NCBI GenBank assembly: GCA_964016885.1 | Contig: OZ024741.1 | Location: 100,998,001 to 101,062,000, forward strand | Source of the DNA: Eledone cirrhosa | Lineage: Eukaryota | DNA length: 64,000 bases | Reading direction: 5' to 3' | In this document: one piece after another, positions 26,554 through 34,291 of the stretch | Layout of the letters: every line of letters starts with the position of its first letter | How positions within the stretch are numbered: the first letter of the stretch is position 1 | Notes under the pieces: model-generated | What the model was told of the DNA's origin: nothing | The model's database searches: none | Seen by the model: the letters and a program-made list of their open reading frames with translations, nothing else | Translations under genes and position numbers: made by a program

Positions 26554-26643
26554 ATGGAGTTTCCTCGAACCTTTCAGTTGTTACCATTGATTTCATTATT
26601 TGGTCTGCTGTTTGTCTTCGACGTAGAAACCGCAGAGAATCAG
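26554..26643 (+). CDS. TMIE: TMIE-like gene, coding exon 1 (signal peptide/first hydrophobic segment): MEFPRTFQLLPLISLFGLLFVFDVETAENQ
   Basis: ATG at 26554, 30 open codons with a hydrophobic core, then CAG|GTAAAT donor (phase 0) that joins exon 2 in frame. Possible upstream acceptor ttttctttcag at 26397. Confidence 0.75.
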
Positions 26644-27067
26644 GTAAATATATGACATTTCATATCTCTATAGTGTTCGGTAATTGTTGTTGTCGTCGTT
26701 GCTGTCGCTGTTGTTGTTTAGCTCCTGTATATGAGTCAATTTGCTTCCCATACAAAAACTTCGTAAGAGGGTAGAGTGTCATTTAAGGGACGCTTCGTTG
26801 TTATTTCCATTAAGTTGAGCAGCCATATAATTATTTAAATAGCTCGTTTGCCATGGTTGATGTGTTATTTCGTTATTGTTACTGTTGTTTTTTTTTTTAT
26901 CAAAAGAGTCTGATTGAGCAGACCTCAAGTCGACTCCAAATTGCATTGTTTATATTGTCCCAAAATTACAGCCATCTGATCTTATTATGGTTATCTCCCT
27001 TCATTGTTTTTTTATTTGTTTTTGTTTAGAATTCAAATATACTATAGGGTAGTTGTATCCACTATCT

Positions 27068-27262
27068 CAGACCTTCCAACCTCTAAAAATCCAAACGGGG
27101 AGTACTATGAAAAAAAGTGCCCCAAAACGGGGAGAAATGAGGCAAAATGGGGGAGATTTTACATAATGAAAGCTATACCAATTTTCACAGGAGAAGACTT
27201 TTTCACCTACTCCATAGTGGGCGGGAGATCTCCCCGTCGGACGGGGAGAGTTGACAGGTCTG
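27068..27262. mobile_element. MITE with CAGACCT.CCAAC TIRs and 6-bp TSD (copies 59265-59432 and ~53150-53413)
   Basis: TSD ctatct (27062-27067/27263-27268); TSD cattaa (59259-59264/59433-59438). Confidence 0.85.
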
Positions 27263-27899
27263 CTATCTGTTTGGATAATTTCAGTTCATGAAAGTCTTTC
27301 AACTCACTGTATTACATGTGATTCTCTACTATACCTGTACCTATTATGCGGAACACTATCCTAACGTATTTTCCCCTCAACCATTATTCTTGGTACTCAT
27401 AATTAGCGTCACTAGATTATTTCTATATCTTCAAACATTGATTACTCTTAGTAGTGCCAACTGAATAGAATATGCTTCGCTAAAACTGAAACATGTTTAT
27501 TGTTTTTACCTGTTAACTTTAAACACAAGATCCAGTCCAATTTACATTGTCTATATTGTCATAAAATTTCAATCAACCGATCTTATTGAAGTTATCCCCC
27601 TTGTTTTTTTTTTTTAGATCTTAAACGTCACCAGAAGGTGCTCTTTGTCTAGTAATTACTTGGATAATCTTAGTTGATCAAAGTGTTTCAACTCATTATA
27701 TTATACATTAGAACTCCAGAAAATATGGCAGCAGTAAGAACATCCATTCAGCAATCGCCAAAGCATTCGGCTAGTAGGCATAGCATAGCACGAGGGATAT
27801 AAAGTCGGAGTTTGAGGAGGATTCTACATACCGATTTGAAACTGCATCCTTACAAAATGATATTGGTTTAAGAATTAACTGAAACAGATCATGCCGCCA

Positions 27900-28144
27900 A
27901 CCGCAGGGCCGCAAATCAATGCGATTCCACCCGAGATGACCCGGAAAGTCATGGAGAACTTTCAGGAACGACTCCAATGCATTGCCAACGACGGCTGCCA
28001 TTTGACTAATATAATTTAAAAAAACATTAAAACAATACTATTTTTTTCTGTACTTTTTTGAAATATAATAAGTTTTTTCTAGATAGTTGTGTTCTTTTTT
28101 TATATTCGTTCAAAATGTGGGAGATCTTTACGCCCAACCCTGTA
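27900..28144 (+). mobile_element. Tc1/mariner-type transposase C-terminal remnant with right TIR
   Basis: INAIPPEMTRKVMENF...CIANDG.HL; ends cccaaccctg-TA. Confidence 0.55.
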
Positions 28145-28179
28145 TGTGTAAGACCCTACTATAGTAGATTGTGTTATGC

Positions 28180-30826: not shown

Positions 30827-31043
30827 AGGCAATAAATATTTTTCATTTGTAAACGAAACTTCCTCGTTTTTTCTATATATATATATATATATATATATAT
30901 ATATATATATATATATATATATATATATATATATATATATATATATATATATATATATATATATATATATATATATATATATATATATTTGTATATATAT
31001 AAGGGAACAAAGAATCAGCGTTGCATCATATACATATTTAATT

Positions 31044-31133
31044 ACATATTACATGTTTCACTGTCGATGAGCTCGAGGAACGATCGATTGATGATCGATC
31101 CTGACTCTGGAATCCGAAGCTCCTCAGATATGT
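31044..31133 (-). ncRNA. Type I hammerhead ribozyme motif with extended stem II
   Basis: Minus strand: acatat-CTGAGGA-gcttcg...cgacagt-GAA-ACATGT-A-atatgt. 6-bp stem I, palindromic stem III. Confidence 0.75.
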
Positions 31134-32732
31134 GTTCACATGCAGAGTGCTCATCTTGGCATACCGCCTACCGACGTAATTAATTTGCACTTCTAATACC
31201 TATATATATATATATATACCTATATATATACCTATATACATATATATATATATATAACATAAATAAAGATGCTGATGTTACATAAATAGTTTAATCATTA
31301 TAATTATTTCAACTGTTCTCCCATGCAATCAAGATGTATATATGTTATTTTTATACTGAATCTCCATCGTAACTACAAACTACGAACGGAATATATATAT
31401 ATATATATATATATATATATATATATATATATATATATGAATAAAGTTAGTCCTTCATCAGTGATCTTCCAACCATCATTGGTATTTCATCGCTTTAAAG
31501 ACCATATACCTCCGGTTGGTGCGAGCAACGGCTAAAAAAAGTCGTTGGGACACGTAAATAAAGGGGACACGAGTGTAAACAACAAAAATGGTGAGCAACG
31601 AAAAGTGAGGAAGAAGGAGTCAAGTCCCAAATTTCTATGAATTTAAATTCGGTGAAATCGTGAAGGAGAGAGAATAAAGACCATCAAACCTGGTTGGAAT
31701 GTAAGCAAGGAAGGAATTCCGTACAGGTCTAACGGGAGGAAGAAGGGATCTAGTCTGTGAATTCGGTGAACGTGAGTTCTGTGAAATCGTAGACGAGTGA
31801 GAGAGAAAGAACGACCTGCTAGACCAAGAGTGCGAAAGAAAAGAATTACGCACAGGTCAAACAGGAAGAAGGAGGAGGAGGAGAGGTAGTAACAGAGAAT
31901 GAGTGAGTGAAGGGTAAGGAAGAGGCTAACAGAGAGAATGACTGCTAGAATATATATATATATATATATATATATATATATATATATATATATATATATA
32001 TATATACATACATACACACGCACACACACACACATATATATATATATATTTATTTATATATATATATTCAGAGAGAGAGAGAGAGAGAGCGCAGAGTGAA
32101 GTTAGTTCCGATAAGCAGAGTTCATTATAATAGCATTAAGCAAATCAGATTGAAGACAGCAGCATGTCTTTGGTTGGAGCGTGTTAGTGAATAAATCTTT
32201 ATAAACAGCTAGCAGAAAACCACCCCAATGCTAGCATGTGTAGTGTGCATATTGATATTATATGCAAGTATATATGCATGTAGATATGATACATCAAATA
32301 AAATCGTAATTGACAATATACACAGAAATTGAACGAAGACTGCACTCTCTTATGTAATCAGTAACGTAATCATGATACATTACAAAAAAGACGATATTAT
32401 ATATAAACTGCATTAGGAGAAAATTAGTGACGGAAATATATGAATGTTTATTTAAGCGATCGCTAACCGGAAGTGTTGACATTTGAAAATTTTAAAGAAG
32501 TGAATCTTAAAATAAGCAACAATTATTTACATTTGATAAAAAAAAACGAAGTTTAGTAGATAAATTATGTAATATTCATTCATTATTTATTCAAAGTAAT
32601 CCAACTTATTTTACAAACGGCATAAACAAATATATTCTGGACGCAGTCCCACACTCCTTACTTTATTATAGTTTAGATTAGTTGGATGTATTTCTATTGT
32701 GATTGAAGAGTTCCTTACTTTGTCTTTAACAG

Positions 32733-32876
32733 TCGTCATAACTTGTTGCTGTGTCGATTTTCGCATCCCAAGAACTGTCCAACAGATCGAGGAGACTGAT
32801 CGAAAACTGAAACTTAACAAGCAATACATCAAGGAACTGAGTAGAGCTGCCTCTTCACCTACACCAGCATCCACTG
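32733..32876 (+). CDS. TMIE: TMIE-like gene, coding exon 3: (I)VITCCCVDFRIPRTVQQIEETDRKLKLNKQYIKELSRAASSPTPAST(D)
   Basis: Acceptor ctttgtctttaacag|, 144 nt, donor G|gtaagt, phase-compatible with exon 2. Matches the TMIE signature [37 protein letters not shown]. Confidence 0.9.
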
Positions 32877-34127
32877 GTAAGTCTCAGATTATTTTTTTTT
32901 TTCAAGTTTGCACTTGGTAAAGAAGGTGAGGGTGGAGAAGGGTGGTGGTGCTCTCCTGCAGTAAATTTACCAAAAGATGGGGAAAACTAGCGAAAATGGT
33001 ATAGGAGAATGTGACTACTTGTGTCTGTAGGTTGAATAACGTTAGTTGGGAGAGAGCATTGCCCATTGGTGGTCAAGGCGATTGTGGATCAGCTCTCTAT
33101 AACATTTTTATGTAACCCCCACCCCACCTTAATTTCGTTACTTGTCTTTGTAATATCTCTTCCATCAGATGTCCCTGTGGCAAATAAAAGACATTCTTCT
33201 TCTTCTTCTTCTTTCAGTGACGGTAGAGTGTCGGTAAACATGCTTCGCAGCATGGAGTTACGACTCTTTGCGTTCTGAGTTCCAATCCCACTACGGTTAG
33301 CTTTGCCTTTGATCCTTACAGGGTCGATAAAATAAAGTACCAGTAACGCACTGGGGTCGATATAAACGACTTTCCCCTCCCCTCCAAAATGTTGGCCTTG
33401 CGCCTAATTCAGAAACCATTATTAAGGGGTCGATAAAATAAAGTACCACTAATTACACTGGGTTATTGCTGGCCTTGTGCCTAAAGTAGAAACAATTATT
33501 ATTGTTATTGTTCTTTTGCAATGATCTAATTAACACTGGATTATTTAATTGACTCCCTATCAAGTGAAGTAACCCCAGATATACAGTACTTTCGCAGACT
33601 ATTTGCTGTTTCCAAAAGTGTCGTAATGCTTGGATTAATTCCATATATATCAATTATTTGAACGGTATCTATTTCGTCCCTGTGCGTTCTGAATTCAAAT
33701 CCTCTTGCCCCGGAAAATGTTGACATGATAGGGCTGAAACCCCATAAAATGTCGACTAAACTTATGCAGACGTGAGCTATAGCAACAACAATAATAACTG
33801 GCAGTACCTGAAGATCGCTGATCGCATTTGATTATGTAATGGGACGCAAGTTTGCCTTATTGGGAAGTGGTTGGAGGTACAAATGCGAAAACTGTGGGAC
33901 CACGAGCCATTTATGATGGAGAAAAATGCTTGTTCCACCTTCCCTGCTACCAGAATCTGTAATATAGAAACAGCTACCATTGCTACAACAACCAGAGAAG
34001 TCGAAATATCAGCATCACAACTCTTAGCAGCAATAAAAGCTGCAGAAATTATCCCAAGAATTGCAAGCATTTAAGCCAAGTCTCCGATTTGAGGATATCT
34101 TTCTACCCACTTCCTTTCCTCCCACAG

Positions 34128-34291
34128 ATTTCGGAGGTCTCGAAAAGGGTTATGGGCACCGCACTCTTCTCCTGAATAAACCGTACGCCACCCAAGCAAA
34201 AACAAAACAAAAACAAGCAAAGAAAAAATCAGTCACCTTCAAACAAAAGGATATCGTGAGGACCTTCTACACCCACCAACAATGGATATAA
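34128..34291 (+). CDS. TMIE: TMIE-like gene, terminal coding exon: (D)FGGLEKGYGHRTLLLNKPYATQAKTKQKQAKKKSVTFKQKDIVRTFYTHQQWI*
   Basis: Strong polypyrimidine acceptor cttcctttcctcccacag|, phase 1, open to TAA at 34291. Lys-rich tail as in TMIE. Less conserved, so less certain. Confidence 0.7.

Follow-up and report, generated by a model that had tools for sequence, protein, structure and literature searches.

The window analysed here is a 64,000-nucleotide stretch of AT-rich, microsatellite-dense animal DNA from the octopus Eledone cirrhosa (GenBank assembly GCA_964016885.1, contig OZ024741.1, positions 100,998,001 to 101,062,000 of the forward strand), and all coordinates below are counted from its first letter. 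Its plus strand carries a spliced gene for a homologue of TMIE, a subunit of TMC mechanotransduction channels. The locus is a real, single-copy octopus TMIE gene, and its product is probably an auxiliary subunit of a channel of this kind.

Structure of the gene

Coding exon 1 (26554..26643, plus strand) begins with the ATG at 26554 and comprises 30 codons that encode a hydrophobic N-terminus and end at a phase-0 donor. Coding exon 2 (28655..28802, plus strand, 148 nt, phase-1 donor) encodes a short ectodomain, the LRVWH motif that contains R64 and W66, and most of the membrane helix. Coding exon 3 (32733..32876, plus strand, 144 nt, phase-1 donor) supplies the end of the helix, the cysteines C84-C85-C86, the RIPRT elbow with R90 and R93, and a predicted cytosolic helix. 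A preliminary description of the window had joined these three exons through AG/GT ends in phases 0, 1 and 1, and both its coordinates and the motifs that it named are correct; a hydropathy analysis reveals the hydrophobic N-terminus (about residues 7-22) and one long hydrophobic stretch (about residues 64-88). By analogy with mouse and worm TMIE, the hydrophobic segment of exon 1 is likely a cleaved signal peptide.

The nearest proteins are two Octopus models, P0001 of O. sinensis (XP_036362873.1, LOC118765236) and P0002 of O. vulgaris (CAI9727473.1), in line with the cephalopod origin supposed in the preliminary description. Exon 1 is identical to the N-terminus of P0002 at 15 of 30 positions, and the second part of exon 2 and the whole of exon 3 are identical to P0001 at 28 of 32 and 42 of 48 positions, respectively; over exon 3, the O. 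sinensis and O. vulgaris orthologues both reach 91%. P0001 and the short contig of P0003, the nearest relative outside Octopus, both read across the joint between exons 2 and 3. This joint is also fixed by spacing: in an ungapped register on R90, W66 lies 24 and R64 26 residues ahead of that Arg, a spacing shared by 128 and 115 of the 134 homologues, respectively. The same register underlies all residue counts below, which cover 134-135 non-Octopus homologues; 135 of 142 stored non-Octopus proteins were kept by a motif filter, and since near-duplicate cluster members are included, the homologues are not independent. Of the 24 sequencing runs returned by a run search, 21 have shares of 0.05-0.06 and three, all from a single study, contain the stretch. 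Among four runs compared with the locus, X22 behaves as genomic DNA, with contigs that continue through the intron with 0-1 differences, X1 and X4 give no match and X5 gives repeat scraps only; none of the four shows a spliced joint, which counts neither for nor against the gene model.

Family identity and copy number

The assignment to the TMIE family, proposed in the preliminary description, is borne out by the profile comparison. Exon 3 alone matches Pfam PF16038 with an E value of 2.4e-10 and 40.5 bits against a cut-off of 27, and the longer frame reaches 45.8 bits against the same cut-off. Exon 2 matches positions 7-25 of the profile weakly (E 0.13), and exon 3 takes up the profile at position 27. 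Among the sequences of the PDB, the top match is 7USW_D, the worm TMIE from the TMC-1 complex, and a profile built from 62 homologues finds worm TMIE (7USW/7USX/7USY/8TKP) as its only PDB sequence, with an E value of 1.4e-21. When exons 1-3 are spliced, the product scores about 98-100 bits against a profile of the 135 non-Octopus homologues.

A search of the whole 3.0-Gb assembly for the family returns one match above the cut-off, which is the window locus. Two weak matches elsewhere in the genome (E 0.41 and 0.85) contain stops, lie below the cut-off and were set aside. In a tree of 36 core domains, the window sequence falls beside O. sinensis and P0003, but it belongs to none of the starred sets and the deep branches are weak; because of this weak support, orthology rests on the single copy and on sequence identity.

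A pseudogene, or a remnant that is not expressed, is a very improbable reading of the locus. No RNA run among those searched contains it, and the faults in both public Octopus models suggest thin RNA support, which speaks for such a reading, but the three exons contain no stop or frameshift, their splice sites are intact and the locus is the sole copy in the genome. In addition, conservation is higher in the domain (exon 3) than in the signal exon, and P0003 is encoded contiguously across the exon 2/3 joint on a contig of 1106 bases.

The last coding exon

The preliminary description had closed the gene with an exon at 34128..34291 (plus strand), which yields a four-exon protein of 181 residues with a Lys-rich tail. 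The frame is indeed open through this exon, but the exon itself is doubtful and may at most serve as an alternative, repeat-derived end of the transcript. Sequence comparison, copy number and acceptor anatomy all point to an exon further downstream (34428..34465, plus strand), which comprises 12 codons and a stop and yields a protein of 139 residues. It matches the tail of P0001, including the stop, at 9 of 13 positions, which is the top score among about 128,000 six-frame positions of the window, and it is single-copy in the genome. Its TAG acceptor is preceded by a pyrimidine tract and, 31 bases upstream, by a CTAAT branch-type motif (34394-34398).

Three findings make the upstream exon probably wrong: a dispersed repeat contributes its acceptor, an A-rich run accounts for its Lys-rich part, and no homologue of it was found. 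The end fragment of an old dispersed-repeat family (34060..34186, no strand assigned) covers the acceptor and the first ~59 bases of the exon; at least 22 other copies exist at 70-90% identity, and 15 of the 22 listed copies span the acceptor at 70-77% identity. An alignment of five copies shows that the pyrimidine tract of this acceptor is itself repeat sequence, and no YTRAY branch motif is present in the 60 nt upstream of it. A comparison of the exon with the 140 stored proteins gives nothing better than E 0.22, and the exon scores 2.7 bits against the profile of 135 homologues. Whether the tail is Lys-rich depends on the last exon, and the Lys-rich version probably stems from a mistaken one: its lysine codons come from a stretch that is 61% A, with 10 Lys in the upstream exon compared with no Lys and three Arg in the downstream one.

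Several observations speak for an mRNA that ends in 34128-34291 and encodes 181 residues with a vertebrate-like Lys-rich tail, either as the main form or as an alternative isoform that uses an exonised repeat. The exon offers a phase-1 open frame of 54 codons behind a CAG acceptor with 17 pyrimidines in 20 positions and an AG-free zone of 32 nt. The tails of human and worm TMIE carry positive charge, and homologue tails are long and variable, with a median of 89 residues past the elbow Arg; the 181-residue model has 92 and the 139-residue model 50. Three further points count against the choice of the downstream exon: the upstream acceptor is strong and the first of its kind after exon 3, the choice leans on P0001, a single public model whose N-terminus looks wrong (it matches unrelated proteins), and the identity of 8 of 12 residues with O. 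sinensis could reflect neutral likeness of the DNA. Against the upstream exon stand, beyond its repeat-derived acceptor, the tails of both Octopus models, neither of which ends in this way, that of O. sinensis ending in the downstream exon. An equally long phase-1 open frame also arises by chance: of the 51 plus-strand sites in the window that resemble strong acceptors, 7 are followed by one. On balance, the 139-residue model ending at 34428-34465 is probably the correct one, and a transcript ending in the upstream exon is unlikely.

Two further arrangements were rejected. A cassette exon from 34128 to the GT at 34256, followed by the exon at 34428, would exit in phase 0 by hand count, and the last exon needs phase 1. 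A frame of 80 codons (33832-34071) and the other listed acceptors have no Pfam match and no homologue support.

Intron positions

Human and mouse TMIE (the DFNB6 and spinner genes) have four coding exons, as the octopus gene does, and their intron 2 interrupts the same codon in the same phase. The human variants c.211+3 and c.212-2 listed in Table 1 of PMC8256367 place human intron 2 in phase 1 of codon 71, ten codons before R81. The octopus intron splits codon 80, also in phase 1 and ten codons before R90, so the correspondence with the human gene given in the preliminary description agrees with the published variants (PMC8256367). Introns 1 and 3 of human and mouse TMIE appear to lie in phases 0 and 1 at near-equivalent places. 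Human intron 1 would follow c.93 in phase 0, although the text and table of PMC8256367 differ by one letter; octopus intron 1 is in phase 0 after base 90. Gene models of other animals that begin with exon 3 or run on into an intron point indirectly to a shared position of intron 2, and to an intron 3 of phase 1 at +40 from the elbow Arg in vertebrate-like rows and +41 in insect-like rows, compared with +38 in the octopus. The presence of intron 2 in non-human homologues indicates that the structure is ancestral rather than a peculiarity shared by octopus and human.

Conserved residues and comparison with worm and vertebrate TMIE

Structures of the worm complex show TMIE as a single membrane helix followed by an elbow and a cytosolic helix, with R49 and R52 bonded to the channel helices TM6 and TM8, R23 and W25 touching the TM1-TM2 loop, C43 and C44 palmitoylated, and an N-terminus that is probably a cleaved signal (PMC9605866, PMC10895266). 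The octopus protein probably has the same layout, again with a likely signal peptide, and its R-x-W, CC and RIPRT motifs are equally spaced: worm R23, W25, C43, C44, R49 and R52 correspond to R64, W66, C84, C85, R90 and R93 with identical spacing (PMC9605866, PMC10895266). The juxtamembrane Cys pair C84 and C85, followed by C86, lies at -6 and -5 from R90, and both arginines of the R-x-P-R elbow are present in R90-I-P-R93-T. Among the homologues, C85 is found in 133 of 135, T94 in 129, I98 in 135 and E99 in 123.

In mouse TMIE, C76 and C77 are required for the boost of TMC2 current, for which the first 27 residues are not needed (PMC11892609), and R82, R85 and R93 are linked to phosphatidylinositol 4,5-bisphosphate (PIP2) and slow adaptation (PMC13370362). 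The octopus protein keeps the residues equal to human W57, R81 and R84 and to mouse C76/C77. It differs from human TMIE in that R86 is replaced by Val and R92 by Thr, the latter site carrying Arg in 37 of the 135 homologues only, and the Lys-rich tail of vertebrate TMIE is missing from the preferred 139-residue model. Compared with worm TMIE, the octopus ectodomain is longer (about 35 residues), and Val, Asp and Leu occupy positions +5, +12 and +15 from R90.

These three substitutions weigh against a TMC partnership. V95 is shared by the window gene and both Octopus orthologues where 133 of 135 homologues have Lys or Arg, the exceptions outside Octopus being Asn in P0003 and Met in a hemichordate. 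D102 replaces the Tyr of 84 of the 135 and is shared with both Octopus orthologues, P0003 and also Trichinella, and L105 stands where 128 of 135 have Lys or Arg. Together, these deviations mean that the interface with TMC may be altered. Additionally, the complete conservation of C84, R90, P92 and R93 is by construction, because these residues belonged to the motif by which the 135 homologues were selected. A structural model of the O. sinensis orthologue contains a helix at 95-116, a linker and a helix at 125-151, an arrangement like that of worm TMIE, with a predicted local distance difference test (pLDDT) score of about 76-96 in this region, but Foldseek finds no match for it in the PDB. 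Position 95 corresponds to human R86, and R86Q is listed in the variant table of PMC8256367. Judged from an alignment of homologues that are not independent, the change at this position may be specific to cephalopods, and it may alter lipid or TMC contacts or may be harmless.

A proposed role as a TMC subunit

The reading that best accounts for these features, to which a probability of about 75% is assigned, is that octopus TMIE serves as an auxiliary, lipid-anchored gating subunit of a TMC-1/2-like mechanosensitive channel. After removal of the exon-1 signal peptide, the product of the 139-residue model would be a one-pass membrane protein. W66 and R64 would contact the TM1-TM2 loop of the channel on the outside, and C84 and C85 would be palmitoylated, with chains that pack on the pore helices TM6/TM8. 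The elbow residues R90 and R93 would hydrogen-bond to TM6/TM8 and may bind PIP2, with the cytosolic helix next in line. In this arrangement, TMIE would link force in the membrane or a tether to gating and increase the current. The cells that use it could be hair cells of the statocyst and epidermal lines, proprioceptive or nociceptive neurons, or muscle. The steps are modelled on worm structures and mouse experiments, and to them the octopus genome contributes the gene, its family, its single copy, the contact residues and a TMC-1/2-like gene.

Four TMC loci are present in the genome, at C20:13.54 Mb and at C3:220.3, 261.1 and 318.7 Mb (L010-L013). An exon of the C20 locus matches worm TMC-2 with an E value of 5.7e-19 and TMC-1 with 9.7e-19, and another TMC locus reaches just 0.24. 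The C20 gene thus looks TMC-1/2-like and the C3 loci look like other TMC subfamilies, with the reservation, which counts against the proposed partnership, that the comparison uses one exon each, sets C20 against the worm TMCs alone and involves no tree. A tandem pair of LHFPL-family genes lies at C15:6782700-6815975 (plus strand), about 26 kb apart, and further LHFPL-family loci are found on C9 and C2, one of them with stops.

Hair cells and sucker receptors

The preliminary description had suggested a role either in hair cells or as a partner of sucker receptors. Use of TMIE in cephalopod hair cells (statocyst, epidermal lines) within a vertebrate-like TMC-TMIE-LHFPL transduction complex is conceivable but doubtful. 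Besides TMIE, the genome contains four TMC loci and no fewer than four loci of the LHFPL family; vertebrate hair cells use TMIE as a core subunit, and octopus statocysts contain secondary sensory cells (PMC6031363). However, TMIE also occurs in nematodes, insects, snails and bivalves and is retained by animals that lack such organs, so its presence indicates neither a particular cell type, such as hair cells, nor a connection with sucker receptors. Ecdysozoan Tmc123 acts in proprioception, egg laying and nociception (PMC7003098), and in octopus the mechanoreceptor demonstrated to date is NompC, in suckers (PMC12919962).

A narrower proposal, for which the odds are poorer still, is that hair cells of the statocyst and epidermal lines rely for transduction on the TMC-TMIE complex that vertebrate hair cells use, with a cephalopod TMIE whose elbow is retuned (Val at the R86 site, or Asn in the nearest relative, and Asp at the next conserved Tyr). 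Cephalopod hair cells are widely regarded as convergent with those of vertebrates. If the proposal were true, the retuned elbow would make this TMIE a naturally occurring variant with which lipid-dependent gating and adaptation could be tested.

It is highly unlikely that octopus TMIE is an auxiliary subunit of nicotinic acetylcholine receptors (nAChRs) or of the chemotactile receptors found in the suckers. In mammals, TMIE reportedly allows alpha9/alpha10 nAChRs to function, a basis confined to vertebrates (PMC8256367), and the chemotactile receptors are nAChR-derived and expanded in octopus (PMC11526382). Against such a role, the conserved TMIE residues all map to the TMC interface of known structures, and TMIE is single-copy while the chemotactile receptors are expanded. 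These receptors function in heterologous cells and are not known to need TMIE there. The word TMIE is absent from the text of a chemotactile-receptor review (PMC11526382) and of an octopus nociceptor paper (PMC12919962).

Other features of the window

A Pfam scan of the longest 145 of 271 filtered open frames in the window finds only TMIE and transposon families at or near the cut-off. A near full-length remnant of a non-long-terminal-repeat retrotransposon, with endonuclease and reverse-transcriptase matches and frames broken by stops, lies at 40427-43651 (plus strand). Reverse-transcriptase/endonuclease fragments of the long interspersed nuclear element (LINE) type are matched at 8424-8765, 37631-38221 and 49934-50794 (all plus strand), and Mariner-type transposase fragments (PF01359) at 20459-20683 and 22241-22859 (both minus strand). 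Weak Pif1-type helicase fragments at 13760-14158 (minus strand), below the cut-off, are possibly a Helitron remnant. A long tandem array of short units at 38530-40039 has several frames open for 190-460 codons and looks like a minisatellite rather than a gene. Within intron 1, an open frame at 28409-28654 (minus strand) lies directly upstream of the exon-2 acceptor and has no Pfam match; it presumably resembles the start of a LINE endonuclease.

Distribution of the family and public annotation

A HMMER search with the O. sinensis protein returns 137 matches, a few of which resemble P0001 in its odd N-terminus alone and are removed by the motif filter; word-based homologue searches return 2-3 proteins only. 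About 130 relatives are found in molluscs, annelids, brachiopods, nemerteans, nematodes, insects, hemichordates and vertebrates. For 16 of the 20 clusters looked up, a name is available: a chiton, six gastropods, a scallop, a nemertean, a brachiopod, an annelid, Trichinella, hoverflies, a hemichordate, lampreys and a ray. Drosophila CG15130 is given as a TMIE homologue (PMC10898740), and echiuran TMIE is a co-expression hub of larval ciliogenesis (PMC10380512). Given TMIE in snails, bivalves, nematodes, insects and vertebrates, its occurrence in octopus is expected.

With relatives so widespread, and with orthologous models in two Octopus annotations that carry a precomputed PF16038 match, the gene is not special, nor is it hidden, as the preliminary description had called it. 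It is unnamed: P0001 and P0002 are labelled uncharacterized or hypothetical, and the TMIE name is likewise missing from all eight further molluscan relatives that were looked up. Both public Octopus models look mis-spliced. P0001 shares the downstream last exon with the window gene but has an unrelated N-terminus that looks mis-modelled, and P0002 shares exon 1 but carries a poly-Val/Gly insert that interrupts the membrane helix at intron 2; this insert and the tail of P0002 both look like intron sequence. No description of a cephalopod TMIE is found in the literature covered, which excludes subscription papers and supplements.

The outcome is a corrected model of a conserved channel subunit from a known family, which is unnamed and mis-spliced in the public Octopus annotations. 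The expected presence of TMIE in octopus leaves unanswered whether hair-cell transduction is homologous or convergent, but the corrected model provides probe targets for asking if cephalopod hair cells use TMC-TMIE, and thus for addressing homology versus convergence of transduction.

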